Part shown: positions 31,371 to 50,573 of the stretch, piece by piece | Layout of the letters: each line of letters begins with the position of its first letter | Position numbering within the stretch: the first letter of the stretch is position 1 | Source of the DNA: an uncultured Loktanella sp. | GTDB lineage: Bacteria > Pseudomonadota > Alphaproteobacteria > Rhodobacterales > Rhodobacteraceae | DNA length: 64,000 nt | NCBI GenBank assembly: GCA_937132065.1 | Contig: CAKZNT010000015.1 | Span: 2,094 to 66,093, forward strand | Direction: 5' to 3' | Notes under the pieces: generated by a model | What the model was told of the DNA's origin: nothing | Seen by the model: the letters and a program-made list of their open reading frames with translations, nothing else | The model's database searches: none | Program-made: the position numbers and the translations under genes

Positions 31371-34064
31371 ATGCCAGTTGTCGTCGTCGAATCCCCCGCT
31401 AAGGCCAAGACAATTAACAAGTATTTGGGGAGCAACTACACAGTTCTCGCCTCTTATGGTCACGTCCGCGACCTCCCCCCCAAGGACGGCTCTGTGCTGC
31501 CCGATGAAGATTTCGACATGAAATGGGAGATCGCAAGCGACAGCAAAAAGCACATCAAGGCGATTGTTGACGCGCTCAAGAACGACAACGAACTGATCCT
31601 CGCGACCGACCCCGACCGCGAAGGCGAGGCGATTAGCTGGCACTTGACCGAGGCCTTGACCGCCAAAAAGGCGATCAAGAAAGACACCCCCGTCAGCCGC
31701 GTGGTGTTCAATGCGATCACCAAGACGGCCGTGCTCAACGCGATGGAAAACCCCCGTCAGGTCGACGTGCCGCTGGTCGATGCCTATCTTGCGCGCCGCG
31801 CATTAGATTATCTCGTCGGCTTTAATCTGTCGCCCGTGCTTTGGCGCAAATTGCCGGGCGCTAAATCGGCGGGCCGTGTGCAATCCGTGACGCTGCGGAT
31901 CATCGTCGAGCGCGAGATGGAGATCGAGTCGTTCCGCAATCAGGAATACTGGACCGTCAAAGCGCAGTTGAAAACCGATCGCGGCCAATCTTACGAGGCC
32001 CGCTTGACCACGCTGGCAGGCGAAAAGCTTGAGAAATTCAGCATCTCCAACGCCACGCAAGCAGAGCTTGCCGTGCAAGCCATCAACAGCCGCGACCTGA
32101 AGGTCATTGCCGTCGAGGCAAAACCAGGCACGCGCAACCCGTCCCCGCCCTTTATGACCTCAACCCTCCAGCAGGAGGCAAGTCGTAAATTCGGCTTTGG
32201 CGCGCGTCAAACAATGTCGGTCGCTCAGCGACTTTATGAGGCGGGTCTGATCACCTATATGCGGACCGACGGCATTGATATGGCCCCCGAGGCCGTGACC
32301 TCTGCCCGCGATGCGATCAAGGCGAAGTTCGGTGACAAATACCTGCCCGCCGAGGCGCGCGTCTATAAAAACAAGGCCAAGAACGCCCAAGAGGCCCACG
32401 AATGTGTGCGCCCGACCGATCTTATGGTTGGGGCTGACGAGGCCAATATCACTGACGCCGATCAACGCAAATTGTATGATCTGATCTACAAGCGCACGAT
32501 TGCAAGCCAGATGGCTGGCGCAAAGTTTGAACGCACGGCTGTTGATGTTGGCTCTGCTGACGGACAAGTCATGTTGCGCGCAAACGGTCAGGTGATGACC
32601 TTTGACGGCTTCATTGCGATCTATGAAGAAGGCAAGGACGACAGCACCGACGAGGACGACAAGCGCCTGCCCCAGATCACCCAAGGCGAGAAGGCCGAGA
32701 AAAGCAGCGTCGATCCAGAGCAGCACTTTACCCAGCCGCCCCCGCGCTACACCGAGGCCACATTGGTCAAGCGCATGGAAGAACTGGGCATTGGTCGCCC
32801 CTCCACATATGCCTCGATCGTGACAACCATCCAGGACCGCGGCTACGTCGAAAAAGACAAGAACCGCCTTATTCCACAGGATAAGGGCCGTTTGGTCACC
32901 GCGTTCCTGTCGAACTATTTCCGCAAGTATATCGGGTATGATTTCACCGCCGATCTGGAGAACCAGCTTGACGAGGTCAGCGCGGGCAACGCCGATTACA
33001 AGAAGGTGCTTGAACGGTTCTGGCGCGATTTCTCTGCCGCAATCGGTGAAACATCCGAATTGCGGATCACCGAGGTTTTGGAAAAGATCAACGAGGTCTT
33101 GGAGCCTCACCTGTTCCCGCCCCTTGAAGATGGTGGCGATCCACGGCTTTGCCCCAACTGTGGCAAGGGCCGCCTGTCGATGCGCACCGCCCGTTCGGGT
33201 GGCGCATTTATCGGCTGCTCGAGCTATCCAGAGTGCCGTTATACCCGCCCGTTTGGTCCGCCAAACCCCGAGGCAGAGGCGTCTGCGATCCCGCCCGAGG
33301 GCAAGTTGCTTGGCACGGATGACGGCGACGAAATCCGCGTTTTCAAGGGCCGCTTTGGTCCCTATGCCCAGCGCGGCGAAGTTACCGAAGAAAACAAAAA
33401 GCCACCACGCCAGTCGATTCCAAAGGATTGGGAGCCAGAAGAGCTTGAGCTTGAAAAGGCTGTCATGCTTTTGTCCCTCCCCCGCGAAATCGGCCCGCAT
33501 CCAGAGGATGGCATCACCGTTTGGGCCAATATTGGCCGCTATGGTCCATATCTTAAGCACGCGCCGTCCACCTCTGATCGGGGGGGCACAAACGCCAATC
33601 TTGAGGGCATCGACGATGTCTGGACCGTTGGCATGAACCACGCGGTGCAGCTTTTGGCCGAAAAAGTCGCGAGCCGTGGCCAACGTGGCAAGGCTGCCGT
33701 GCCAATCCACGAACTTGGCGAGCATCCCGAAGCGGGCGGCCCAGTAAACATCTACACAGGTAAATACGGCCCCTATGTGAAGTGGGAAAAGATCAATGCG
33801 ACGATCCCCGACACCATCGAGCCTGCGGACCTGACAATGGCGCAAGCTGTCGATCTGATCGACGAGCGCGCAGCCAAAGCCGGCAAAAAGAAGCCAGCGG
33901 CCAAAAAGAAGGCGGCCCCCAAGAAAAAGGCGGCTGCCAAAAAGCCGGCGGCAAAGAAAGCGCCTGCGAAAAAGCCGGCCGCCAAGAAAAAGCCCGCAGC
34001 CAAGAAAAAGCCCGCAGCCAAGAAAGCCCCTGCAAAAGATGACGAAGGTGATGTGATCGAATAG
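31371..34064 (+). CDS. topA: DNA topoisomerase I with Zn-ribbon and Lys/Ala-rich tail
   Basis: [39 protein letters not shown]. Confidence 0.98.
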   Translation: MPVVVVESPAKAKTINKYLGSNYTVLASYGHVRDLPPKDGSVLPDEDFDMKWEIASDSKKHIKAIVDALKNDNELILATDPDREGEAISWHLTEALTAKKAIKKDTPVSRVVFNAITKTAVLNAMENPRQVDVPLVDAYLARRALDYLVGFNLSPVLWRKLPGAKSAGRVQSVTLRIIVEREMEIESFRNQEYWTVKAQLKTDRGQSYEARLTTLAGEKLEKFSISNATQAELAVQAINSRDLKVIAVEAKPGTRNPSPPFMTSTLQQEASRKFGFGARQTMSVAQRLYEAGLITYMRTDGIDMAPEAVTSARDAIKAKFGDKYLPAEARVYKNKAKNAQEAHECVRPTDLMVGADEANITDADQRKLYDLIYKRTIASQMAGAKFERTAVDVGSADGQVMLRANGQVMTFDGFIAIYEEGKDDSTDEDDKRLPQITQGEKAEKSSVDPEQHFTQPPPRYTEATLVKRMEELGIGRPSTYASIVTTIQDRGYVEKDKNRLIPQDKGRLVTAFLSNYFRKYIGYDFTADLENQLDEVSAGNADYKKVLERFWRDFSAAIGETSELRITEVLEKINEVLEPHLFPPLEDGGDPRLCPNCGKGRLSMRTARSGGAFIGCSSYPECRYTRPFGPPNPEAEASAIPPEGKLLGTDDGDEIRVFKGRFGPYAQRGEVTEENKKPPRQSIPKDWEPEELELEKAVMLLSLPREIGPHPEDGITVWANIGRYGPYLKHAPSTSDRGGTNANLEGIDDVWTVGMNHAVQLLAEKVASRGQRGKAAVPIHELGEHPEAGGPVNIYTGKYGPYVKWEKINATIPDTIEPADLTMAQAVDLIDERAAKAGKKKPAAKKKAAPKKKAAAKKPAAKKAPAKKPAAKKKPAAKKKPAAKKAPAKDDEGDVIE
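33981..34025 (+). repeat. 18-bp in-frame tandem repeat (GCCAAGAAAAAGCCCGCA x2 plus a partial copy) in the topA tail
   Basis: Read directly; encodes AKKKPA units. Confidence 0.8.
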
Positions 34065-37382: not shown

Positions 37383-37562
37383 ATGCTTAACATGATCAAA
37401 AACTTCAAGAAATCCGAAGACGGCGCAGTAACAGTAGACTGGGTTGTTTTGACAGCCGCTATCGTTCTTTTGGGCGCAGCTGTTGGTTCTTCCATCAAGA
37501 CAGGCGCAACTGGCCTGGCAGCAGACGTTGGCGGCGACATGACCGCTCTTATCACTGAATAA
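37383..37562 (+). CDS. flp: Flp pilin 1, 59 aa (MLNMIKNFKKSEDG/AVTVDWVVLTAAIVLLG...ALITE)
   Basis: Manually translated (below the ORF-track cutoff); GAGGAGG SD; class IVb leader and hydrophobic helix. Confidence 0.9.
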   Translation: MLNMIKNFKKSEDGAVTVDWVVLTAAIVLLGAAVGSSIKTGATGLAADVGGDMTALITE

Positions 37563-37582
37563 TCCATTCGGATTTTGTGATT

Positions 37583-37614
37583 GGCCGCTGCGCTATGCTG
37601 CGCGGCGGCCCTTT
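37583..37614 (+). terminator. Hairpin/terminator after flp1
   Basis: GGCCGCTGCG...CGCGGCGGCC followed by CTTT. Confidence 0.6.
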
Positions 37615-37759
37615 CCGTTTAGCTTTGTGGGTAAAGTGACCTCAAAATGAGCACTCCCCCGCCACAACCCCGCCACAAGTTACTGGCAAACGTTGTAGCA
37701 GCGAAAATATCCGAAAAGAAAAATTCTTAATTCCAGATATATCCCGAGGAGGGACCACA

Positions 37760-37939
37760 ATGCTTAACCTGTTCAAAACTTTCAAGAATTCCGAAGACGG
37801 CGCAGTCACAGTTGACTGGGTTGTTCTGACAGCCGCTATCGTTCTTTTGGGCGCAGCTGTTGGCTCGTCCATCAAGACAGGCGCAACTGGCCTGGCAGCA
37901 GACGTTGGCGGCGACATGACCGCAATGATTACTGAATAA
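37760..37939 (+). CDS. flp: Flp pilin 2, 59 aa (MLNLFKTFKNSEDG/AVTVDW...AMITE)
   Basis: Manually translated; tandem paralogue of flp1 at +377 bp; same SD. Confidence 0.9.
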   Translation: MLNLFKTFKNSEDGAVTVDWVVLTAAIVLLGAAVGSSIKTGATGLAADVGGDMTAMITE

Positions 37940-37959
37940 TCCAACCGGATTATTTAATC

Positions 37960-37991
37960 GGCCGCTGCGCGTTATCGCGTGGCGGCCTTTT
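37960..37991 (+). terminator. Terminator after flp2
   Basis: GGCCGCTGCGC-gttatc-GCGTGGCGGCC-TTTT. Confidence 0.7.
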
Positions 37992-38112
37992 GCGTCGCAG
38001 CCGTGCCTTGGGAAATAACCTTGAATTGATCACCTGATCGCCACGAACGTGCCGCAATATCAAGCAACAGTAGGTTTAACGAGTAAGAACTGTAAACAAA
38101 GTGGAAACTGAA

Positions 38113-38292
38113 ATGTTGAACCGTATCAAAGATTTTTTCCGCCAGGACTGTGGCGCGATCTCTGTGGACTGGGTCGTTTTGACCGCAGGCATGGTCATTC
38201 TTGCAACCGCGGTCGGCGTGTCCGTCCGCGATGGCGCACTGGACGGGGGCGAAGACATTCAAGCCTACGTCGAGTCGCACATCACTGAATAA
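38113..38292 (+). CDS. flp: Flp pilin 3, 59 aa, divergent (MLNRIKDFFRQDCG/AISVDWVVLTAG...HITE)
   Basis: ATG 38113 in ORF 38101-38292; same leader length and VDWVVLTA core. Confidence 0.85.
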   Translation: MLNRIKDFFRQDCGAISVDWVVLTAGMVILATAVGVSVRDGALDGGEDIQAYVESHITE

Positions 38293-38363
38293 GTCGCACC
38301 CCCTTGCGACGATCACCCGTCAGAGCATCACGCTCTGCAAACGAAAGATAAAGAGGTACGACA

Positions 38364-39221
38364 ATGCGTGCATTATTCGGACTGGTTCTCCTTGTTGGCA
38401 TGGGCCTCGCAGGCTTTGCCGTCTATATGGTTCAGGGCTTTGTGAGCGAGCAGGAAATGGCGCTGCAACAAGAACGTGCCAAGGCCGCAGAAACTGTGCC
38501 AACTGTCAAAGTATACGCCCCCAACCGCATGATCGCTTATGGCGAGCCGGTGACGGAGGCCGATATCACCCTGATCGACTACGCAGTGGCCTATGTGCCC
38601 GAAGGGGCGTTCTCCTCTGTGGAAGAATTGTTCCCCGATGGTGTTGATACCCCCCGCTTTGTCTTGCGTCAGATGGAAATGAACGAGCCGATTTTGGCCG
38701 CTAAAGTGACAAGTCCTGGCAAACCTGCGGGCATCACGTCCCTTTTGGAGCGCGGCATGCGTGCCTTTACGATCAAGGTTGACGTGGCCAGCGGTGTTTC
38801 GGGCTTCTTGCGCCCAACCGACCGTGTTGATGTCTATTGGAGCGGCGCAGTGCGCGGCGAGAATGGCCAGACCTTCACCCAGCTGATCAAATCAGCCGTC
38901 GAGATCATCGCGATTGACCAAAGTGCAAACGGCGAAACCAATGGTGCAAACATTGCGCGCACTGTGACTGTGCAAGTCTCCCCTCAGGATGTGGCTGTTC
39001 TTGCGCAAGCCCAGTCAACTGGCGCTCTTTCCCTCTCTTTGGTGGGTGACGGTGACGATACGGTTCTGAGCGAAATTCTTGTTGACCAACGTGCGCTACT
39101 TGGACTTGCAGACGAGCCAGTGGTTGCCCAAATCGAGGCCGCGCCGATGCAGCAATCTTGCTATATCACCACAAACAAAGGCGGTGATCGGGTTCAGGTC
39201 GAGATCCCTTGCACCAACTAA
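38364..39221 (+). CDS. cpaB: Flp pilus assembly protein CpaB/RcpC
   Basis: N-terminal TM, SAF domain, GMRAFTIKVD..SGVSGFLRPTDRVDV. Confidence 0.93.
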   Translation: MRALFGLVLLVGMGLAGFAVYMVQGFVSEQEMALQQERAKAAETVPTVKVYAPNRMIAYGEPVTEADITLIDYAVAYVPEGAFSSVEELFPDGVDTPRFVLRQMEMNEPILAAKVTSPGKPAGITSLLERGMRAFTIKVDVASGVSGFLRPTDRVDVYWSGAVRGENGQTFTQLIKSAVEIIAIDQSANGETNGANIARTVTVQVSPQDVAVLAQAQSTGALSLSLVGDGDDTVLSEILVDQRALLGLADEPVVAQIEAAPMQQSCYITTNKGGDRVQVEIPCTN

Positions 39222-39246
39222 GCCCCTCATAAAATATAGAACTATC

Positions 39247-39277
39247 GGCACGCATCCCTAATGGCTGCGTGCCTTTT
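39247..39277 (+). terminator. Terminator between cpaB and cpaC
   Basis: GGCACGCA...TGCGTGCC-TTTT. Confidence 0.6.
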
Positions 39278-39433
39278 GCATCATTGCCCCCTTGCGCCGC
39301 TGTTACCGATCCACATCACATTTGCGCGGCAACTCATTGATTCTTGCAATAATTGTTGTTTCAGGGCAGGGTCTGGGGAATGCGGGCAAAAAGACCCGAA
39401 ATAAATGAGGCGTGATCGGAGAGGCAGGTCACA

Positions 39434-40861
39434 ATGACATGTACAAAATTTATCAAAGCGGTTGTTGCCAGCTTTGCGTTATCTATAGCCGTGGTTCCAA
39501 ATATCGGGACGGCGGAAAACTTGCGTGTGATGCGCGGATCGCCATCGACTGCACTAAACGTGCCGATGAACCGCGCGGTCGTCGTCGAGAGCGACACGCC
39601 GTTCACCGAGCTTTCGATTGCGAACCCCGGGATTGCGGATATTTCCTCGCTTTCGGATCGCACGATTTACGTGCTTGGCAAGGAACCGGGGCGCACAACG
39701 CTGACACTTCTGGGTGGTGATGGCCGCCTGATCACAAACGTCGAGGTCCACGTGACCCCCGACATTGCAGAATTCAAAGAGCGCATCCAACAAATCCTGC
39801 CCGGCGAGAACATCGAAATCCGCACCGCGAACAACGGTATCGTGCTTTCGGGAACCGTGAGTTCAATCGCACGTCTTGATCGCGCCCTTGAGCTGGCCGA
39901 GCGTTACGCACCTGATCGCGTGTCTAACCTGATGTCCGTTGGCGGCACGCAGCAAGTCATGTTGAAGGTCCGTTTCGCCGAAATGCAGCGGTCTGTCAGC
40001 AAATCATTGTCTTCCTCCATCGCCCTTCAGGGGTCGACATTGGGCGGCAACCTTGGCTTGCAGGCTGGCACGAACTCGACGAACAACTCTGGCGCCATTT
40101 CCAGCACATTGGACGGCGCAACCCCCGCATCAAACGCAAATAACGGCGCGTTCTTGTTCGGCTTTAACGCAGGTGGCGTAGAAGTCGGCATCCTGCTCGA
40201 AGCTTTGGAAGCGCGCGGCGTTGTGCGCACCTTGGCCGAACCGAACCTGACTGCGCTCAGCGGGCAAGAAGCCAAGTTTCTGGCTGGTGGCGAATATCCG
40301 ATCCCTGTTGCACAAGACGGCGGGTCGATCACAATCGAATACAAACCGTTCGGCGTCGAGTTGAACTTTACACCGCGTGTGATCGACAATGACGTCATCA
40401 ACCTTGAGCTTTCCGCGGCTGTGTCCTCGCTGGACCCGACCAACGGCTTTACCGCCAACGGCTTTAATGTTGACGCCTTCAAACGGCGCGAAACATCCAC
40501 CACGGTCGAAATGCGTGACGGCGAAAGCTTTGCGATTGCGGGTCTTTTGCAAGACGACTTCATGGATCTGAACGGGCAAGTGCCTTGGGTTGGTGACATC
40601 CCAATTCTTGGGTCATTGTTCCGCAGTGCCGAGTATTCGCGCAAGCAAACCGAGCTAGTCATCATCGTGACGCCACATCTTGTGACGCCGACACGTGGCG
40701 AAGTTCTTGCATTGCCAACCGACCGTGTGCAGCCCCCGACCGAGCGTGATTTGTTCCTCTTTGGACGTGTCACCGCCGATAAGGCGCCGCAAACTGGCGG
40801 CGCTGGTGAAGTTGCGCGCCAGGACTTTAGCGGCTCATATGGCTATGTGCTGGACGATTGA
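39434..40861 (+). CDS. cpaC: Secretin CpaC/RcpA with BON domain
   Basis: QVMLKVRFAE, EPNL.ALSG..A.FLAGGEYP, GDIPILGSLFRS, ELVIIVTP. Confidence 0.94.
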   Translation: MTCTKFIKAVVASFALSIAVVPNIGTAENLRVMRGSPSTALNVPMNRAVVVESDTPFTELSIANPGIADISSLSDRTIYVLGKEPGRTTLTLLGGDGRLITNVEVHVTPDIAEFKERIQQILPGENIEIRTANNGIVLSGTVSSIARLDRALELAERYAPDRVSNLMSVGGTQQVMLKVRFAEMQRSVSKSLSSSIALQGSTLGGNLGLQAGTNSTNNSGAISSTLDGATPASNANNGAFLFGFNAGGVEVGILLEALEARGVVRTLAEPNLTALSGQEAKFLAGGEYPIPVAQDGGSITIEYKPFGVELNFTPRVIDNDVINLELSAAVSSLDPTNGFTANGFNVDAFKRRETSTTVEMRDGESFAIAGLLQDDFMDLNGQVPWVGDIPILGSLFRSAEYSRKQTELVIIVTPHLVTPTRGEVLALPTDRVQPPTERDLFLFGRVTADKAPQTGGAGEVARQDFSGSYGYVLDD

Positions 40862-40876
40862 TAGGAAGTTAGGCTG

Positions 40877-41518
40877 ATGAAAAATATTCTGACAGTGACT
40901 GCCGCTTGTGTCGTCTTGAGCGCATGTGCCCAAGACAACTCCTTGCGCACAGGTTTTAACAGCGCGGCGGGCTCCCAGCTTGATACGGGTAACTTTGGCG
41001 CAGCGACCATGAACAATTCGCTCATCCAGTCGGGTGATGCGGATTACACCATCAATCTCGCGCGCCGGTTTGCACAAGAGGTGAACTCGACAGTCACCTT
41101 CCCGTTCAATTCCACAGCACTAGACGAGGCTGCCCGTGCGACCCTGCGCAAGCAGGCAACATGGATCAAGCAGTTCCCTGAGGTGCGCTTTAAGGTGTTT
41201 GGCCACACCGATCTGGTTGGCTCGCAATCCTATAACCGCCGTCTTGGCCTGAAACGTGCAGAAGCGGTTGTGCTTTACCTCACAAGTCAGGGGATTAGCC
41301 GGTCGCGCCTTGAGGCCGTTGTTTCGTTTGGTGAAACGCAGCCGCTGATCGTCACCGAAGGTATGGAGCGTCGGAACCGGCGCACCGTAACAGAGGTCTC
41401 GGGCTTCGTGCAAAATCACCCGATGGTGTTGAACGGTAAATACGCCGAAGTGATCTTTCGCGAGTATATTGGCGCAGCCGATGCACCCGCAACAGTGACC
41501 GCGGCAGACGGTTCCTAA
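40877..41518 (+). CDS. OmpA-family lipoprotein in the Tad locus
   Basis: LSAC lipobox, GHTDLVGS..YN..LG..RA, RNRR peptidoglycan-binding motif. Confidence 0.88.
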   Translation: MKNILTVTAACVVLSACAQDNSLRTGFNSAAGSQLDTGNFGAATMNNSLIQSGDADYTINLARRFAQEVNSTVTFPFNSTALDEAARATLRKQATWIKQFPEVRFKVFGHTDLVGSQSYNRRLGLKRAEAVVLYLTSQGISRSRLEAVVSFGETQPLIVTEGMERRNRRTVTEVSGFVQNHPMVLNGKYAEVIFREYIGAADAPATVTAADGS

Positions 41519-41764
41519 CCGCAAAAAACAGAGTTCACGCGTATCAAATGCGTGAACAACCCCGCCGAAATGCCGCTATCGTCGCGAATGGCCAAACAAT
41601 TAAGCTAGTTTTGCCCAAGTCTCGACAACATTGCCCCCCACAAACAGTCCAAAGGGTTAACCACGAATGCCGAGTCGGCGCGCGTGTGAGGCTATTAGGC
41701 GGCGTTGACGTGATTTTCACGCATCCCGTTTAAACAATGCCTGCGACCCATAAACAAAGGACGT

Positions 41765-43015
41765 ATGGTGATGAGCAACGCAGTTTTGAAATCAGATGCA
41801 CAGTCGATCGTGGCGTGCACCATCAGCCGGGATGTGCAGATCTTTGATCTTCTGATCGAGGACATGGAAACCGCACTTGGTGAGAATTGGGGCGACCTTT
41901 CCTTTGAGGATGCGGCGGCCTATTTGCAGCAACCAGAGGCATCAGGTCTCCAGTTTGTGACCATCGCAATGGATCACGAGGATGAAGACAACCTCGATCA
42001 AATCGCCAATGTCATTGCCGTTGCAAAAGCGCACGACATCAAGGTCATCCTGATCACCGAAGACGTCAGCCCCGCGTCCTTGCACAAGCTGCTGCGCGAA
42101 GGCGGCGACGAGTTTATCCCCTACCCGCTTCCCGAGCAGGAACTGGCGAATGCGATCGAGCGCGTTCTGACGCCGCCAGAGCAGACCCCGGTTGCAACTG
42201 ATAACGAGCCAAAGCTCAAGGCGACGGGCACACACAACGGCGTTGTCATCCCTGTTCAGGGCATGGCGGGCGGCACAGGTGCAACCACATTCGCAGTCAA
42301 CCTCGCTTGGGAGCTGGCGAACGTCAGCAAATCCGAAAACCCGCGTGTTTGCCTGATCGATCTCGATTTGCAGTTCGGGACGGTTTCAACCTACCTCGAC
42401 CTGCCACGGCGCGAAACGGTGCTCGAACTCTTGAGCGATACCGAGGCGATGGACAGCGAGGCCTTCATGCACGCCCTTTTGTCGTATGAACAAAAGGTGC
42501 ATGTCCTGACCGCCCCGACCGACATGATCCCGCTCGATATGATCACCGCAGAGGACATTGATCGCGTTATTGAAACCGCGCGGGCCAACTTTGATTACGT
42601 CATCATCGACATGCCATCAACGATGGTTGAATGGTCGCAGTCCGTGCTCGAGGCCGCGCATGTCTACTTTGCAATGATCGAACTCGATATGCGCTGTGCG
42701 CAAAACACGCTGCGCCTCAAGCGCGCGCTGCAATCAGAGGATCTTCCCTTTGAAAAGCTGCGCTTTGTGCTCAACCGCGCGCCCGGGTTTACCGACCTAA
42801 GTGGCAAGAGCCGTGTGAAACGACTGGCCGACAGCCTTGGCATCGCCATCGAAGTGATGATGCCCGATGGCGGCAAACCAGTGGCACAAACCAACGATCA
42901 CGGCGCACCGCTTGCTGTATCGCTGCCTAAAAACGCATTGCGCAAAGAGATCGCGAAGCTCGCGAAATCTGTGCACGAGGTCAATCAATCCGAAGAAGCC
43001 GCCGTTCAGGGCTAA
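41765..43015 (+). CDS. cpaE: CpaE/TadZ (receiver-like plus MinD-like ATPase)
   Basis: GMAGGTGATT deviant Walker A, LIDLDLQFG, DYVIIDMP. Confidence 0.9.
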   Translation: MVMSNAVLKSDAQSIVACTISRDVQIFDLLIEDMETALGENWGDLSFEDAAAYLQQPEASGLQFVTIAMDHEDEDNLDQIANVIAVAKAHDIKVILITEDVSPASLHKLLREGGDEFIPYPLPEQELANAIERVLTPPEQTPVATDNEPKLKATGTHNGVVIPVQGMAGGTGATTFAVNLAWELANVSKSENPRVCLIDLDLQFGTVSTYLDLPRRETVLELLSDTEAMDSEAFMHALLSYEQKVHVLTAPTDMIPLDMITAEDIDRVIETARANFDYVIIDMPSTMVEWSQSVLEAAHVYFAMIELDMRCAQNTLRLKRALQSEDLPFEKLRFVLNRAPGFTDLSGKSRVKRLADSLGIAIEVMMPDGGKPVAQTNDHGAPLAVSLPKNALRKEIAKLAKSVHEVNQSEEAAVQG

Positions 43016-43026
43016 GGAATTAAACC

Positions 43027-44469
43027 ATGTTTTCGAAATACAAAAAAACTGGTGACGCAGCACCTAAAGCAAGCGCAAAACCGGCACTGGTCGCCACCCC
43101 CGCGGCGGCCCCCGCCGAGCCAGCACGCCAATCATTGATGCGCGCGCGCGCCAAGCCACATGCAGAGGCCGCGCCGCAAGACAAAGAAAAGCGGCGCAAG
43201 GAACGGCTGGGCGATATCAAACTCGAGCTGCACAAAGCCCTGCTCGACAACCTGAACCTTGCCGCGCTTGAAACCGCGTCAGAGGCAGACTTGCGCGCCG
43301 AGATCAACGCGATCGCACAAGAATCCCTTGAGGAACTCGGGATTGTTCTGAACCGCGAAGAGCGCCAGTCACTTAGTCAGGACTTGTTCTTTGAGGTGAC
43401 GGGTCTTGGCCCGCTCGAAGTGCTTCTCAAGGATGAGACCGTCAACGATATTCTGGTGAACGGGCCGCAACAAATCTTTGTGGAACGCGATGGTAAACTG
43501 CAACTGACGGACGTGACCTTTAAGGATGAAAAGCACCTGTTGCGGATCATCGACAAGATCGTGTCGGCTGTTGGTCGCCGTGTTGACGAAAGCAACCCTT
43601 ATGTCGATGCGCGCTTGGCAGACGGCTCGCGTTTCAACGCGATGGTCGGGCCGATTGCGGTGGACGGTAGCCTCGTTTCCATTCGTAAATTCAAGAAAGA
43701 AAAGCTCGGCATCGACGAGCTGGTCAAATTCGGCGCATTCACCGAAGAAATGGCCGCCTACCTTCAGGCCGCCGTTGCCTGCCGCCTCAATGTGATCGTG
43801 TCAGGTGGTACGGGTTCCGGTAAAACGACAACTCTCAACGCGCTGTCTTCGTTTATTGATGACGATGAACGCATCCTCACAATCGAGGATACGGCCGAAC
43901 TCCAGCTGCAACAAACGCACGTTGGCCGGATGGAAAGCCGCCCGCCGAACGTCGAGGGTAAGGGCGCTGTTTCTCAACGCGATTGTCTGAAAAACGCGCT
44001 GCGTATGCGCCCCGACCGCATCATCGTGGGTGAGACGCGCGGCGAAGAAGTTATCGACATGCTGCAAGCGATGAACACGGGTCACGACGGATCAATGACC
44101 ACAATCCACGCCAACTCGGCGCGCGATGGTGTGTCCCGTCTTGAAAACATGATCGCGATGGCCGGGATCGAGATGCCGATCAAGGCGATGCGCAGCCAGA
44201 TTTCCTCGGCTGTGAACCTGATCGTGCAAGCCTCGCGTTTGCAAGATGGCTCGCGCCGCATGACCTCCATCACCGAAATCACGGGCATGGAAGGCGAGGT
44301 GATCTCTATGCAAGAGGTGTTCCGCTACCAGCGCGTTGGCCTGACACCTGACAACAAAATCATTGGCCACTTCACCGCAACTGGTGTGCGTAGCCACTAT
44401 TCAGATCGCTTTAAGTTGTGGGGCTATGACCTGCCGCCACAAATCTTTGAACCTATGGTCGCGGAGTAA
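43027..44469 (+). CDS. cpaF: Pilus assembly ATPase CpaF/TadA
   Basis: [43 protein letters not shown]. Confidence 0.96.
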
Positions 44470-44475
44470 AACATC

Positions 44476-45441
44476 ATGGTTTCTGCAGCGCCTATTATTT
44501 ATATCGTCATCTTCATCGCCGTTCTGGCGATTGTGCAGGGCGCGTATCTCGTTATTTTTGGCAAATCCATTTCGATGGATGGCAAGGTAAACCGACGCCT
44601 TGACCTGCTCGAAAAAGGGGGCGGTCGCGAACAGGTGCTGGAACAACTCCGCAAGGAAATGACCCAGCATATGAAATCGCAAAGCATCCCGCTTTACTCG
44701 ATTTTGGCGTCCAAAGCCCAGAAAGCGAATATCGCTTTCACACCCGCACAGCTCATTATGATCATGTGCGTGGTCAGCGTTATGGCCTTTGTTGGCCTCA
44801 CTGTTGGCACAGGCGTTGGCACACAAGTGCGTATCGTGCTCGCCATTTTGATGGGTGTCGGCGGCGTGTTTGTCTGGATCAACGGCAAGGCGAAAAAGCG
44901 GATGGCGATGATCGAAGAGCAGCTGCCGGAAGCTATCGAATTGATGGTGCGCTCGCTGCGCGTGGGTCACCCGTTTAGCTCTGCCATTTCCATCGTCGCC
45001 AATGAGGTCGCCGATCCGCTTGGCACGGAAATGGGCGTCATCTCGGACGAGGCCGCCTATGGGCGCGATGTCGGCGAATGCCTTAAGGCGATGGCCGAGC
45101 GGCTTGATATGCAAGACATGCGCTTCCTCGCGGTTGCCGTGACAATTCAACAGACCTCTGGTGGTAACCTCGCCGAAATCCTTGATGGATTGGCCAAGGT
45201 GATCCGGTCACGCTTCCGTCTGTTCCGGCGCGTGGCTGCGATTACTGCCGAGGCGAAGTGGTCTGGCAAGTTGCTCTCGGGCTTCCCGATTGTTGCGATG
45301 ATCGCCGTGAATGTCGTCGAGCCAACCTATTTTGACGAGGTCATGGAAGCCCCCGTCTTTATTCCTGCCTGTCTCGTTGTTGCGGGTCTGCTGATTGCAA
45401 ACCTGTTCGTGATGCGCGCCCTCGTGAACATCAAAGTGTAA
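44476..45441 (+). CDS. tadB: Inner-membrane platform TadB
   Basis: QLPEAIELMVRSLRVGH, QTSGGNLAEIL. Confidence 0.92.
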   Translation: MVSAAPIIYIVIFIAVLAIVQGAYLVIFGKSISMDGKVNRRLDLLEKGGGREQVLEQLRKEMTQHMKSQSIPLYSILASKAQKANIAFTPAQLIMIMCVVSVMAFVGLTVGTGVGTQVRIVLAILMGVGGVFVWINGKAKKRMAMIEEQLPEAIELMVRSLRVGHPFSSAISIVANEVADPLGTEMGVISDEAAYGRDVGECLKAMAERLDMQDMRFLAVAVTIQQTSGGNLAEILDGLAKVIRSRFRLFRRVAAITAEAKWSGKLLSGFPIVAMIAVNVVEPTYFDEVMEAPVFIPACLVVAGLLIANLFVMRALVNIKV

Positions 45442-45453
45442 GGGACCAGATCA

Positions 45454-46404
45454 ATGCAAAAGCTGAACACCATGATCGTCGACCTGCTGGGGCCATTTGG
45501 TCCGCTGATGCTCGTCGGGATGCTCGGGGTCTTTATGATCCTGATCGCTCTGCCCTCTTTTATGAAAAACGACGATGATCCGCTTGATCGCCTTAAGGCG
45601 GCCCCGCGCAAAGAGATCAAGAAAGGCGAGAAACTGCGTCAGGCGCAGAGCAACGATAAGCTCGACAAATACGCCAACTTTCTTGAGCCGCAAGATGACG
45701 AGGAATACTCGGCTGTTAAGCTCAAGCTTGTGCAAGCGGGTTACCAATCCAAGAATGCCGTGCGCTTCTACTACTTCGCGCAGTTTACACTGGGGATCAT
45801 CGGTCTGGTGCTTGGCGGGTTCTATGCCTTCATCAAGATGCAGCAAGGTGACGTGACCACGCAAAACCTGATCATGATGATCCTTGTGCCTGCGGGTTCT
45901 GGTTATTTTGGTCCGAAATACTGGGTCACACGCCGTCAGGCGATGCGCCAGGAAGCGATTACCAACGGTTTTCCCGACAGCCTCGACATGATGCTCGTTT
46001 GCGTCGAAGCGGGTCAATCCCTCGACCAGTCCATCATCCGCGTTTCGCGCGAACTGAAATCGGGCTTTCCTGATCTGGCGAGCGAGTTTGAAATCGTCAG
46101 CCACGAAATGAAGGCGGGTAAAGATAAAGGCTCTGTTCTCAAAGACATGTCCGAGCGTTGCGGCGTGCAAGACATCAAGAGCTTTGTGACCGTGCTTGTG
46201 CAGTCGCAACAGTTTGGCACATCGATCGCTGACGCCCTGCGGGTCTATGCTGCGGAAATGCGTGACAAAAGAGTCATGCGCGCCGAAGAAGCGGCCAACA
46301 AACTGCCAACAAAGATGACTTTGGCCACGATGATGTTGACGGTTCCGCCGCTTCTGATCATCTTGATCGGACCGTCAGCATACGCGATTTCGCAAAACCT
46401 CTGA
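45454..46404 (+). CDS. tadC: Inner-membrane platform TadC
   Basis: FPDSLDMMLVCVEAG, QFGTSIADALR, AEEAANKLPTKM. Confidence 0.92.
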   Translation: MQKLNTMIVDLLGPFGPLMLVGMLGVFMILIALPSFMKNDDDPLDRLKAAPRKEIKKGEKLRQAQSNDKLDKYANFLEPQDDEEYSAVKLKLVQAGYQSKNAVRFYYFAQFTLGIIGLVLGGFYAFIKMQQGDVTTQNLIMMILVPAGSGYFGPKYWVTRRQAMRQEAITNGFPDSLDMMLVCVEAGQSLDQSIIRVSRELKSGFPDLASEFEIVSHEMKAGKDKGSVLKDMSERCGVQDIKSFVTVLVQSQQFGTSIADALRVYAAEMRDKRVMRAEEAANKLPTKMTLATMMLTVPPLLIILIGPSAYAISQNL

Positions 46405-46423
46405 CGGTGTAAGGAAACTGTCG

Positions 46424-46981
46424 ATGTTGCATAAAAGGGCGCTTTGTCTCTTTGCCCTCATGACCCTTGCCGCCTGTTCTTCGGGCGGCTTTGGGCAATC
46501 CAATGACCCGATGTTCGCGCCCAGTGTTGCGGGCGCATCGGATATTGACGGGCTGCTTGTCGGTCATCGGTTGATGGCTGCGGGCGAGCATGAATTGGCC
46601 CTCAAGGCCTATACACGCGCCGCCGCCCAACAAGGATTGAACGTCGATACGCTTTCTGCGCTTGGCTCTGCGAACCTGCGGCTCGGGCGGCTTGGTCAGG
46701 CAGAACGGCTCTTGCGGCGGGCCACAAAACTCGACCCCACCTTCCCTGCGGCGTGGAACAATCTAGGCGTCATCCTCATGGAACAGCGCAAATATGGCGA
46801 AGCGGCGCAGATTTTTCGTCGCGCGTTTGCAACGGATAACGGAAATTCCGACCAGATCCGCGAGAACCTGAGGATATCACTCGCTCTGGTCGAAGATCCA
46901 TTCTACGATAATTCTCAAAACGAAGACGTAAAATTGGTGCGGCGGGGAACTGGCGATTTTGTCATCCTGACTGCACTTTGA
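46424..46981 (+). CDS. TPR lipoprotein (TadD-like) 1
   Basis: LAAC lipobox; TPR repeats (AWNNLG). Confidence 0.8.
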   Translation: MLHKRALCLFALMTLAACSSGGFGQSNDPMFAPSVAGASDIDGLLVGHRLMAAGEHELALKAYTRAAAQQGLNVDTLSALGSANLRLGRLGQAERLLRRATKLDPTFPAAWNNLGVILMEQRKYGEAAQIFRRAFATDNGNSDQIRENLRISLALVEDPFYDNSQNEDVKLVRRGTGDFVILTAL

Positions 46982-47008
46982 GAATTGAGCAGTAAAGGAC
47001 GCAGAAAA

Positions 47009-47866
47009 ATGCGCCACCCTATTAGTCTTACGCTGGCTGCGGTTGCAGCCATTGGTCTTGCCGGTTGTGATCAATCCGGAGAGGCGCAAGTCGAGCGCGC
47101 TCTGGAAGATATGAATGTCGTGGACGAGACAAACCTCAATGACGTGATGCTGACAATCGGCGATCCAGACGAGGCCGTGAACTATTTTGCAGGGGCAAAC
47201 ACCAATGATCCGGGCCGCATTGATCTGCAACGCGGATTGGCGAAATCCCTCATTCGTGCGGGGCGCGCGGCGGACGCTGTGACCGCATGGCAGGTCGTGA
47301 CCAAACACGCCGAGGCCAATGACGACGACAGTGTTGAACTCGCAGATGCCTATATTCGCACCAACAAGTGGGATGATGCAGCCGCCACGCTCAACCTGAT
47401 CCCCCCGACCCATGAAACCTATAAGCGTTACCGCCTTGAGGCCATGGTTGCCGACAGCAAGCAGCAGTGGGACAAGGCCGACAGCTTTTATCAAACCGCG
47501 GCGGGGCTGACGACGACCCCCGCTGGCGTGCTTAACAACTGGGGCTACTCCAAGTTGACGCGCGGCAAATATTCCGAGGCCGAGCGCCTGTTTAGCGATG
47601 CTCTGCGCCATGACACTGGCATGTTCACCGCCAAGAACAACCTTGTTCTCGCACGCGGGGCACAGCGCAAATACGATCTGCCCGTGATCCCGATGTCGCA
47701 AATCGAACGGGCGCAACTGCTCTATACACTCGCGTTGACGGCGATCAAGCAAAACGACGTGACAATCGGCAAAGGCCTACTGCGCGAGGCAATCGACACG
47801 CATCCGCAGCACTTTGACGAGGCAAACCGCTCGCTGCGTGCCCTCGAAGACAATGTGACGAACTAG
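47009..47866 (+). CDS. TPR lipoprotein (TadD-like) 2
   Basis: LAGC lipobox; TPR repeats (LNNWG, AKNNL). Confidence 0.8.
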   Translation: MRHPISLTLAAVAAIGLAGCDQSGEAQVERALEDMNVVDETNLNDVMLTIGDPDEAVNYFAGANTNDPGRIDLQRGLAKSLIRAGRAADAVTAWQVVTKHAEANDDDSVELADAYIRTNKWDDAAATLNLIPPTHETYKRYRLEAMVADSKQQWDKADSFYQTAAGLTTTPAGVLNNWGYSKLTRGKYSEAERLFSDALRHDTGMFTAKNNLVLARGAQRKYDLPVIPMSQIERAQLLYTLALTAIKQNDVTIGKGLLREAIDTHPQHFDEANRSLRALEDNVTN

Positions 47867-48367
47867 ATGTTTGTGCTGCCTGCATCTGCCGCTGCGTGGC
47901 TCTTGATTGCCGCGTTGCCGATCTCGATATTTGTCGCGTGGAACGATATGCGCGCCATGAAAATCCCCAATGTCGCTGTTGGCGCCTTGGTGATTGGCTT
48001 CGCCGTGCTCGGGCTTATCGCTTTTCCGTTTAGCCAATACCTGTGGCAGTGGTCGCACCTGATCGTGGTGCTTGTGATTGGCTTTGTGCTCAATGTCCTA
48101 GGTGTTTTTGGTGCGGGTGATGCCAAATTTGCTGCCGCAGCTGCGCCATTTGTGATGCTTGGCGACCTTGATTTGCTAGGATGGATCTTTATTGCTTGCG
48201 TGCTTGCGGGCTACGTGACGCACCGTATTGCCAAACATAGCCCCCTGCGCCGCCTTGTCCCCGACTGGGAAAGCTGGACGTCAGGGCGACGGTTTCCAAT
48301 GGGGCTGCCCTTGGGAATGACGCTTGTGACCTACTTGTTTTTGGCGGCAACCCAGTCACCCGTTTGA
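47867..48367 (+). CDS. cpaA: Prepilin peptidase CpaA/TadV (A24)
   Basis: D....KIPN and GAGDAK aspartates, FPMG. Confidence 0.9.
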   Translation: MFVLPASAAAWLLIAALPISIFVAWNDMRAMKIPNVAVGALVIGFAVLGLIAFPFSQYLWQWSHLIVVLVIGFVLNVLGVFGAGDAKFAAAAAPFVMLGDLDLLGWIFIACVLAGYVTHRIAKHSPLRRLVPDWESWTSGRRFPMGLPLGMTLVTYLFLAATQSPV

Positions 48368-48482
48368 TCAACAATGCCTTGAAACCTCGCGGCTTTGTCC
48401 ATCATTTAGCCATAAAGTTCGCTGATAAACTGCTGTAACGCCGCCCCGATTGCGGCCAGAAACAACAGTCAGGCGAGACACG

Positions 48483-49793
48483 ATGAACATGCACACCTCA
48501 AGCGTGATGGCCCCGCCAGCACCAAAAACGATCGCACAAATGCAGTTGCCGGTCGCGATGATGCGCGACATTCTTCTGAAAACGATCTTTCGGATGAACC
48601 TGAACCTCGTGTCGGAACTCAGCCGCGTAATCTGCCTGCCAGTGCCCGTTGTGCAAGAACTCGTCGACCTTGCCCGCAAGCAACGCCTCGTCGAGGCAAC
48701 AGGCACGCTTAGCGCCAGTAGCGGCAACGAGATGGGCTACCAACTCACCGATCAAGGTGCCAACCGCGCGCAGGATGCGCTTAAGCAGTCGGAATATTTT
48801 GGCGCAATGCCCGTCCCGCTTGATGTCTACCGCGAGCAAATCAAACGCCAATCAATCCGCAACCTGAACATCACCCGCGACCAGCTGGCCAACGCGATGG
48901 GGCATCTGATCCTGCCGCCCACCCTACTGGGAAACCTCGGGCCTGCGGTTGGTGCTGGTCGCTCGATCCTGATGTATGGCCCGCCGGGCAACGGCAAATC
49001 GTCCATCTCGAACGGGATTCGCGACGCCCTTGGGGACAAAATCTATGTGCCCCGTGCCATCGAATTCTCTGGTCAGGTGATCACCGTTTATGATCCGATT
49101 GTGCATAGCGCCGCCGAAGATGACGTTGATGACCCCACGAGCCTGCGGCGCACGTCAGGGCGCTTTGACACCCGCTATGTGCGCTGCGAGCGGCCCACGG
49201 TTATTACCGGCGGTGAACTGACACTCGACATGCTCGACCTTGTCTATAACCCGACCGCGCGGACCTATCAGGCGCCGCTGCAACTCAAGTCGACCGGCGG
49301 CATCTTCATCGTGGACGACCTTGGACGCCAGGTTGATCCGCCCCAGACACTCGTGAACCGCTGGATTGTGCCGCTGGAAGAGAACAAAGATATCCTGTCG
49401 CTCCAGTCAGGTGAGAAATTCGAAGTGCCCTTTGACACGCTCGTGATTTTCTCGACCAACTTTCACCCGAATGCGATCTTTGATAAAGCGGCGTTGCGGC
49501 GGATCTTCTTTAAGATCAAGATTGACGGGCCTGATCAGGCTGACTTCCTCAAGATCTTTGCAATGGTTGCGCGCAAACGGAAAATGCCGCTCGACGAGGC
49601 GACATTGATCCACCTGCTCAACAACCGGTATCCAGAGATCGACAATGTCTACGCGAACTACCAGCCCATCTTTTTGATCGACCAGATGATTGCGATTTGC
49701 GAATTTGAGGGTATTCCCTATCAAATGACGCCAGAGCTGATTGACCGCGCTTGGGCCAATATGTTCGTCGAAGAAGAAGACATCATGCACTAA
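48483..49793 (+). CDS. AAA+ ATPase of unknown function with N-terminal winged-helix-like region
   Basis: GPPGNGKS Walker A, FIVDD Walker B, FSTN sensor I, ALRRI Arg finger. Confidence 0.85.
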   Translation: MNMHTSSVMAPPAPKTIAQMQLPVAMMRDILLKTIFRMNLNLVSELSRVICLPVPVVQELVDLARKQRLVEATGTLSASSGNEMGYQLTDQGANRAQDALKQSEYFGAMPVPLDVYREQIKRQSIRNLNITRDQLANAMGHLILPPTLLGNLGPAVGAGRSILMYGPPGNGKSSISNGIRDALGDKIYVPRAIEFSGQVITVYDPIVHSAAEDDVDDPTSLRRTSGRFDTRYVRCERPTVITGGELTLDMLDLVYNPTARTYQAPLQLKSTGGIFIVDDLGRQVDPPQTLVNRWIVPLEENKDILSLQSGEKFEVPFDTLVIFSTNFHPNAIFDKAALRRIFFKIKIDGPDQADFLKIFAMVARKRKMPLDEATLIHLLNNRYPEIDNVYANYQPIFLIDQMIAICEFEGIPYQMTPELIDRAWANMFVEEEDIMH

Positions 49794-49814: not shown

Positions 49815-50573
49815 TTATTCCAAGTAGCCTGCCGCGACGAGGTTCTGGCGATAGGTCTTGCTGACAGGCACGACATAGCCGTTGGTAAGTTCGGCAACCT
49901 CCTTGTTGCCAACCCGCCTGCCCTCTTTGACAAAGGCGCGCGCAACCCAATGCGAGCGGTGCGTGCAATAGCCGTCCGTTGTGTCCATCTCTTTCACCGC
50001 ATCCGAAAACCGCATCAACAGGCGGTGCACGCTGCCGTCCTCGATTTGCACCTGCACATAATGATCACTGACGGTGATATGCGCAATCTGGAGCGCGAGA
50101 TCGGCGGGAAGTCTGGCGTATAACCGTGGACGCGCCACCTCTACCACATCAGCCTTTTCGAACACAGGGTTCATCAAGACGATCCACAGCCCCAATATGC
50201 CCGCAAAGGCAACTACAGACATGAGAACCTGCCAGAATGGCATGCCATTATCGATTCCGCCCAAAAGCCCCGCGCGCGAAATCAGAAAAACCAAGGGTGC
50301 ATAGATGATTGCAAAGGCAATGGAAGACAAAATTCCATGCTGATAAAGGCTGTGGGACGGAAACACCCGCTCTTCGATTTCGCAAGCAAAGCCGCCCACG
50401 GCAAGCGCCAGAAACGAGAGGGGAACCCAATAGATAATGCGGTCAACAAGCGACATTTCGGCGAACGTCCCGAATGGCCCAGACAGCACAAACACAACGG
50501 CGACCAGCAACGTCACAAGAAGCGTTCGGATACGAAACGTCCTGCTGATAAAGTCAGATAAAAAGTCTCTCAC
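49815..50573 (-). CDS. Membrane-anchored LytTR DNA-binding protein
   Basis: Four N-terminal hydrophobic helices; DHYV...LMRFSDA...THRSHWV LytTR; GTG start. Confidence 0.85.
   Translation of the reverse strand: MRDFLSDFISRTFRIRTLLVTLLVAVVFVLSGPFGTFAEMSLVDRIIYWVPLSFLALAVGGFACEIEERVFPSHSLYQHGILSSIAFAIIYAPLVFLISRAGLLGGIDNGMPFWQVLMSVVAFAGILGLWIVLMNPVFEKADVVEVARPRLYARLPADLALQIAHITVSDHYVQVQIEDGSVHRLLMRFSDAVKEMDTTDGYCTHRSHWVARAFVKEGRRVGNKEVAELTNGYVVPVSKTYRQNLVAAGYLE

Follow-up and report, generated by a model that had tools for sequence, protein, structure and literature searches.

Tad (Flp) pili are involved in attachment, biofilm formation and host colonisation, as with roseobacters on algae, rhizobia on roots, Vibrio and Burkholderia, and in current accounts of the machine CpaF/TadA is the single motor and TadZ/CpaE the single ATPase for positioning (PMC10934763, PMC11322086). 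A further ATPase is encoded next to the Tad locus of an uncultured Loktanella sp. (Rhodobacteraceae), in the 64,000-nucleotide stretch of contig CAKZNT010000015.1 which was analysed as a whole and is here called the window. The gene, at positions 48483..49793 on the + strand, is a stop-free frame of 436 amino acids, and its product, P0001, joins an N-terminal winged helix to an AAA+ core. The linkage of such genes to tad is repeated and independent of gene order in Alpha-, Beta- and Gammaproteobacteria, and P0001, which belongs to a large unnamed AAA+ family, is probably a cytoplasmic accessory factor of a subclass of Tad pilus systems. No paper studying a protein of this family was found in a literature search, and a Tad paper on Vibrio vulnificus mentions no such ATPase.

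In type II secretion, ExeA/GspA is an accessory AAA+-type ATPase of a secretin-containing envelope machine and is found in some systems only; ExeA spans the membrane and has a domain that binds peptidoglycan in the periplasm. P0001 would likewise be accessory and is patchily distributed, but it is soluble, and the likeness is drawn from the general description and not from homology. Closer relatives were sought by structure. An AlphaFold model of P0001, built from an alignment of 80 diverse homologues (predicted local distance difference test score, pLDDT, 93.8; predicted template modelling score, pTM, 0.90), gave more than 1,200 AAA+ structure matches in Foldseek at E <= 0.001, in the order 8P49, a LonB module, then NorQ (MoxR), BchI, sigma-54 activator cores, RuvB, MCM and dynein. 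LonB bears an insertion between Walker A and Walker B, and Lon-type modules (archaeal LonB 4ZPX, mitochondrial LONP1) are the second-best structural match (E 2e-10); unlike them, P0001 has no protease domain, its insert is soluble and beta-rich rather than a membrane anchor, and no family match to Lon is obtained at sequence level. The best match, 8P49 (Pyrococcus furiosus Q8U0N8), is an uncharacterised homohexamer with a flexible N-terminal domain and no Pfam family (bioRxiv 10.1101/2023.06.09.544317). It covers P0001 at near full length, including the N-domain (E 9e-13, template modelling score, TM, 0.49-0.61), but it is archaeal, only 13-14% identical and missed by sequence profiles.

The MoxR/Mg-chelatase group (NorQ, BchI, RavA, ComM; E ~5e-8) shares with P0001 the pre-sensor-1 hairpin together with an insert around helix 2, and NRWIVPLE after the Walker B of P0001 also resembles this group when the translation is read. 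In contrast, the AAA_5 and Mg_chelatase matches of P0001 are below cut-off, the window's locus has no VWA partner gene, and P0001 carries its winged helix at the N-terminus. A search of the viral structure library brought up nothing beyond generic ATPases resembling Lon, MoxR and CobS. CpaF/TadA and CpaE/TadZ, encoded in the same loci as P0001, are also P-loop proteins, but CpaF is a T2SSE protein (Pfam match 6e-66 for the window's CpaF) and CpaE is ParA/MinD-like (matching AAA_31/ParA/CbiA-type hidden Markov models, HMMs), and P0001 is neither, as T2SSE (PF00437) and the AAA_31/ParA/CbiA-type HMMs of Pfam give no match in it. Identity with CpaF/TadA or TadZ/CpaE was therefore rejected. A sequence-only reading of the window, made without database searches, had described a second P-loop ATPase unlike CpaF, which holds and extends to TadZ.

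The open reading frame has no internal stops and contains every motif quoted in that reading. The ATG at 48483 is the correct start, because orthologues (53-91% identity) align from residue 1. In the Walker A motif GPPGNGKS (residues 166-173, 48978..49001, +), G166, G169, G171 and K172 are invariant among the 80 diverse homologues. Walker B reads IFIVDD (residues 274-279, with FIVDD at 275-279; 49302..49319, +), with DD rather than DE and with both D278 and D279 invariant. Sensor 1, FSTN (323-326), and the Arg-finger region, ALRRI (337-341), lie within 49449..49505 (+), where N326, R339 and R340 are nearly invariant. The nucleotide-binding motifs of P0001 are thus intact, and GPPGNGK[ST], hhhIDDFGRQ, NRWIVPLE, FSTN and FLRRI are kept as family motifs throughout the alignment. 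With Walker A and B, sensor 1, the Arg finger, the core and the lid all present, P0001 belongs to the AAA+ proteins in general.

In the model, a MarR-like winged helix and the next helix (residues 24-102, 48552..48788, +; AlphaFold and Foldseek) are joined to the AAA+ core by a conserved linker. The winged helix itself, at residues 24-88, consists of helices 24-38, 43-50 and 54-66 and strands 70-76 and 83-88, with the helix-helix-helix-strand-wing-strand topology of the fold. Modelled alone, the N-domain has a pLDDT of 85.5 and is matched by the regulators MarR, ZitR, AdcR, MexR and SmtB (TM ~0.5, E 4e-3 to 3e-2), nearly all of the top 50 Foldseek matches being MarR-family or SmtB. The N-terminal winged helix-turn-helix (wHTH) that had been suspected from the translated segment ELSRVICLPVPVVQELVDLARKQRLVE...MGYQLTDQG (residues 45-92, +) is hence confirmed at the level of the fold. 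The long insert reported from the letters is also there: Walker A and Walker B are ~100 residues apart, and a beta-rich insert of ~85 residues lies between strand 2 and Walker B (residues ~191-273, 49053..49301, +; strands at 192-263). Its residues D204, H208, D229, R231, P238 and G273 are invariant among the diverse homologues, and pLDDT dips to 63-69 in a flexible acidic/basic loop at ~210-230. Further on are the pre-sensor-1 beta hairpin (residues 302-316, 49386..49430, +; strands 302-306 and 312-316 in the model), with D303, G310 and P316 conserved in the same alignment, and a helical lid (residues 352-425, 49536..49757, +) of four helices, at 352-365, 372-386, 393-409 and 417-425.

The family exceeds 6,500 proteins by word search and comprises 644 clusters at E <= 1e-30 among 50%-identity representatives, most of them aligning over residues ~10-430; in the source databases its members are named 'ATPase', 'AAA family ATPase', 'P-loop NTPase' or 'hypothetical protein'. 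Scans of P0001 against Pfam, NCBIfam and PADLOC found no model above cut-off, only short matches to the Walker A region; the same scans of the Vibrio, Rhizobium and Burkholderia homologues gave Walker A-level matches only, as did PDB searches of P0001 with the single sequence and with a profile. The membership in MCM, ComM or MoxR that the sequence-only reading had entertained could not be upheld. Mg-chelatase/ComM/YifB was rejected with 12.3 bits against a cut-off of 20.3 for PF01078, over residues 158-183 only (in a Vibrio homologue, TIGR00368 reaches 18.1 bits against 362); MoxR with an AAA_5 match (E 0.23; 11.9 bits, cut-off 22) that is confined to the Walker A stretch, and no VWA gene among the window's tad genes; and MCM with no Pfam match at E <= 1, weak structural TM (0.30-0.33) and an N-domain that is a winged helix and not an OB fold. 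The anti-phage ATPase IetA/IteA was discarded as well (NF042959, 28.9 bits against a cut-off of 510; PADLOC IetA covers ~30 residues round Walker A), and so were the sigma-54 enhancer-binding proteins, since Sigma54_activat has no Pfam match in P0001, GAFTGA is absent from its translation, and the likeness to FleQ, NtrC1 and FlrC is structural only. No Pfam match was found for MarR either. From sequence searches and the model taken together, the P0001 family is a large, unnamed one that falls within the pre-sensor-1-hairpin superclade and outside all its named families. Some members carry N-terminal FHA or HDOD signalling domains (P0183, P0226, P0255); no tad genes were seen on the contigs of these fused homologues, all of which are short.

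The association with Tad was examined in genome samples of modest size, and the resulting linkage and co-occurrence counts ignore shared ancestry. Within the Rhodobacteraceae, one genome per genus was searched for the ATPase and for CpaF. Among the 151 genera, 118 have both, 2 the ATPase only, 3 the orthologous CpaF only and 28 neither, so that 5 are discordant (Fisher p = 8e-25, not corrected for shared ancestry). In 105 of the 108 pairs on the same contig, the ATPase gene is on the same strand as cpaF and 3.5-6.4 kb downstream of it, with a bimodal distance whose larger mode corresponds to a divergent membrane-protein gene inserted between cpaA and the ATPase gene. Among 80 named relatives (Loktanella, Octadecabacter, Ruegeria, Leisingera, Gemmobacter, Rhodobacter and Cereibacter are represented), nearly every locus with enough upstream sequence has the order tad...cpaA, the optional membrane-protein gene, ATPase. 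Downstream content is variable: about half of the loci have FolD and the formate-tetrahydrofolate ligase (FTHFS) within 10 kb, at distances that differ, and the others lack them; the junction of ATPase and tad is therefore kept more tightly than the gene order around it. Identity of the ATPase across genera is 75-85%, similar to that of CpaF and above that of the other tad proteins. In one genus (G213), both genes are present as fragmented copies. In another (G277), tad has been lost bar a TPR fragment and the ATPase gene has a TGG-to-TAG change at codon 424 of 436; decay of the ATPase after tad loss was considered and rejected, as this is a single late stop and the gene is at most slightly truncated.

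Outside the family, distant homologues (30-40% identity) adjoin tad genes in other orders. A class-level sample contained homologues of 35-42% identity in 13 other alphaproteobacterial genomes, and CpaF occurs in 13 of its 15 ATPase-bearing genomes, versus 83 of 186 ATPase-less ones (p = 0.002). As none of 18 loci in this sample was linked to tad, linkage appeared at that stage to be limited to the Rhodobacteraceae, a conclusion overturned by a phylum-level sample and by plasmid records. In the phylum-level sample of other families, tad genes adjoin the ATPase gene at 15 of 20 loci; at 14 of these 20, from eight families, it lies between an A24 peptidase gene and cpaB on the same strand, and at one it directly follows tadC. 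A Vibrio locus (L152) reads flp, flp, peptidase, ATPase, cpaB, secretin, tadZ, cpaF, tadB, tadC, TPR, with a gap of 15 nt 5' of the ATPase gene and a 4-nt overlap between its stop and the start of cpaB; many species have homologues, among them V. vulnificus, V. fluvialis, V. furnissii, V. harveyi and V. crassostreae. Of 76 annotated records of plasmids and secondary replicons with a homologue, 57 are from Rhizobium. On Rhizobium etli p42e, the 'ATPase AAA' RHE_RS25680 starts 16 nt after tadC; in Burkholderia pyrrocinia, the 'ATP-binding protein' WN985_RS33280 lies between the prepilin peptidase gene and cpaB; and on a Salipiger plasmid the ATPase gene is convergent with tadC. Moreover, a second copy in genome G293 (40% identical) heads a second tad locus, followed by genes for a TPR protein, an unassigned open reading frame, a TadG-like protein and cpaB.

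A maximum-likelihood tree of 61 family members separates a 'before cpaB' group, an unlinked small-genome group with tandem copies, a Rhizobium-type linked pair, an unlinked alphaproteobacterial group and the Rhodobacteraceae 'after cpaA' group. The linked arrangements form separate clades, and the tree requires the linkage state to have changed three times or more. The ATPase gene directly follows the prepilin peptidase gene, its most frequent neighbour, in each of the two largest linked groups. The tad linkage proposed for the window's gene is consequently well founded: homologues are not mostly unlinked to tad, and the linkage reaches far beyond inherited synteny. By full-length homology and by a gene that adjoins tad, P0001 fits the proposed, unnamed family of Tad-associated wHTH-AAA+ proteins. 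A conserved ATPase family present in many tad loci and covered by no Pfam or NCBIfam model would be an overlooked part of the machine; it would warrant a new family model, which would replace annotations such as 'AAA family ATPase' and 'hypothetical protein'.

Expression data are available from V. parahaemolyticus, whose tad operon, VP2423-VP2437, contains, between tadV/cpaA and rcpC/cpaB, VP2426, a 'predicted ATPase with chaperone activity'; VP2426 falls with the rest of the operon when qseC is mutated, its log2 change of -3.03 being equal to that of its neighbour VP2427 (PMC7859628). From its position and annotation, and not from its sequence, we infer that VP2426 is a homologue of the family.

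Several observations weigh against a role in Tad pilus systems. At 18 loci of an alphaproteobacterial clade there is no tad gene within ~9 kb and no conserved neighbour (4 of the 18 end at a contig edge), and a second unlinked clade consists of small genomes with tandem ATPase copies. Within the Rhodobacteraceae, FolD and FTHFS are often within 10 kb, and the adjacency is thus in part inherited synteny; moreover, one genus (G253) keeps tad without the ATPase, and in three (G229, G284, G290) the ATPase, still 76-80% identical, is not located at the distal (cpaA) end of tad and in G284 is inverted and 8.5 kb from cpaF. In published gene lists, the tad loci of Aliivibrio salmonicida and Aeromonas hydrophila and the flp-1 and flp-2 loci of Sinorhizobium meliloti lack the ATPase gene. 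Finally, the client and the mode of action of P0001 are things that we only infer. Since many Tad systems lack this gene altogether, the protein is not a core part of the machine and marks a subclass of Tad systems. In the small genomes of the second unlinked clade (2.3-2.5 Mb; loci L141, L143 and L144 of genomes G357, G387 and G363), two of the tandem copies contain one in-frame TAG.

In fold, P0001 matches AAA+ remodellers that form rings. As an accessory component of Tad systems, it would assemble as a hexameric ring, like its closest structural neighbour, 8P49, and would spend ATP on remodelling or holding a protein of the Tad machine in the cytoplasm rather than on DNA. Its acidic winged helix may serve partner binding or oligomerisation. 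The most likely clients, as a guess, would be the prepilin/pilin pool or the inner-membrane platform, to which the prepilin peptidase gene, as the most frequent neighbour, points weakly. A role as remodelling chaperone, raised in the sequence-only reading, is plausible. A bolder proposal, which we regard as possible but would not favour, is that a third ATPase, a hexameric winged-helix AAA+ protein, is an old integral part of a major Tad subclass of Alpha-, Beta- and Gammaproteobacteria and, alongside prepilin peptidase and platform, extracts, holds or recycles pilins; if true, there would be a second energy-using step in a machine thought to run on CpaF alone.

The main rival to an accessory role in the machine, though an unlikely one, is a regulator or switch of flp/tad transcription, in which the winged helix binds DNA and the AAA+ ring couples ATP or a signal to the promoter. 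The closest folds to the N-domain are indeed DNA-binding repressors of the MarR/ArsR type, FHA or HDOD signalling domains are found on some family members, and the FleQ, NtrC1 and FlrC sigma-54 activator cores are among the structural neighbours. The surfaces that would meet DNA, however, are net acidic to neutral: the recognition helix has a mean net charge of -1.2 in the window's clade against -0.7 in the other clades, the wing one of -1.0 against +0.4, and the whole N-domain one of ~-0.2 in the Rhodobacteraceae clade. Recognition helix and wing also show poor conservation among family members. The missing Sigma54_activat and MarR matches and GAFTGA loop likewise speak against a regulator, and the gene forms a compact part of the structural operon in Vibrio, Burkholderia and Rhizobium, overlapping a neighbour or separated by 16-33 nt, a placement more usual for structural or assembly factors. 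In favour of a regulator, a spacer of its own precedes the ATPase gene and in some family members contains a conserved element; the element is better read otherwise.

In the window this spacer, between cpaA and the ATPase gene, measures 115 nt (48368..48482, +) and contains CATCATTTAGCCATAAAG (48400-48417), within which lies TTAGCCAT (48406-48413); no terminator-like or sigma-70-like sites were found in it. The sequence-only reading had taken the latter for a CtrA-like half-site. The letters are present at that position, but the CtrA interpretation finds no support, as TTAGCCAT differs from the canonical TTAACCAT and no full box is present, TTAA-N7-TTAA being absent from the window. The tad cluster of D. 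shibae is reported to be under CtrA and quorum-sensing control (PMC7232146, PMC12363192); no evidence tying the ATPase gene to CtrA was found here, and its proposed CtrA co-regulation with the pili is left unsupported. In relatives, CATTTTTTGGCCACAATAG occurs 80-120 nt upstream of the ATPase gene, and TTNGCCAY is present in 20 of 78 upstream regions, versus ~4 expected. Where the divergent membrane-protein gene is present, the element ends in CAT, the reverse complement of the start codon of that gene, and therefore it is best read, judging by the letters, as the leader of the membrane-protein gene. The window has no such gene, and its CATCATTTAGCCATAAAG looks like a remnant of the CATTTTTTGGCCACAATAG leader, which suggests that the membrane-protein gene was deleted in the window's lineage.

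About a third of the Rhodobacteraceae relatives have this polytopic membrane-protein gene (540-680 aa) between cpaA and the ATPase gene and divergent; examples are L042:6532-8541 (-), L045:10255-11871 (-), L046:6521-8572 (-) and L041:11014-12771 (+). It stays with the ATPase gene in G284 and G290, where the ATPase no longer follows cpaA. Its product has no Pfam or NCBIfam match and no similarity to the GT87 gene of Burkholderia pyrrocinia. In the latter species, two GT87 genes, one GT2 and one GtrA gene lie divergent and upstream of the flp genes of the tad locus that includes the ATPase gene (L162:5350-9431, -), a cluster which may be involved in pilin or surface glycosylation.

Two further explanations of P0001 are less likely than a regulator. 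That it is an unrelated cellular AAA+ protein, adjacent to tad through inherited gene order without shared function, is improbable. The two homologue clades unlinked to tad, the frequent presence of FolD and FTHFS nearby in the Rhodobacteraceae and the high identity kept in the three genera where the ATPase no longer follows cpaA would agree with it, but linkage is found in at least four gene orders, in three proteobacterial classes and on plasmids, presence and absence of the ATPase track tad, and VP2426, if it is the homologue that its position and annotation indicate, is co-regulated with its operon in the published Vibrio data set. Vibrio competence depends on a pilus other than Tad, yet the family is present in Vibrio tad loci, which counts against a DNA-handling motor akin to ComM, MCM or RuvB serving the uptake of DNA or gene-transfer agents through the Tad pilus. 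Such a motor, already raised in the sequence-only reading, is the least probable of the explanations: the superclade of P0001 does include MCM, RuvB and ComM relatives, a Lys-Phe is conserved at the hairpin tip and DNA uptake by Tad pili is reported for Micrococcus and Liberibacter (PMC4322843, PMC8513845), but the winged helix lacks a basic character, with a net negative to neutral charge on recognition helix and wing, the Mg_chelatase and RuvB_N matches are below cut-off and do not extend past the Walker A stretch, and the conserved neighbours showed no competence genes.

The Tad locus preceding the ATPase gene in the window has all its genes on the + strand. It is headed by three tandem flp pilin genes, recognised by their Flp-like translations (37383-37562, 37760-37939 and 38101-38292), which together with cpaB, a secretin gene, an OmpA-like gene, cpaE/tadZ, cpaF, tadB, tadC and two TPR genes, assigned with Pfam, occupy 37383..47866; the A24 prepilin peptidase gene cpaA/tadV follows at 47867..48367 (Pfam Peptidase_A24, 2.8e-8) and precedes the ATPase gene, as its counterpart does in the gene order of the Beta- and Gammaproteobacteria. 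Genes for TadE, TadF or TadG pseudopilins were not seen inside this locus. The same genome encodes, outside the window, a second CpaF paralogue (54% identity; G000:C52:98607-99842), presumably in a second tad-like locus; the ATPase gene is single-copy in this genome, and that locus has no copy of its own.

On the 3' side of the ATPase gene and on the opposite strand lie a LytTR-domain gene (49815-50573, -), convergent with it, then folD, the FTHFS gene, a MOSC-domain gene and ftsH. Many relatives also have the LytTR gene 3' of the ATPase gene, adjacent to it or with 3-4.5 kb inserted between the two, as judged by weak tblastn matches (30-34% identity). Elsewhere in the window, a topoisomerase I-like open reading frame (31371-34064, +) has a long C-terminal tail rich in Lys, Ala and Pro (KKPAAKKKAAPKKK...).

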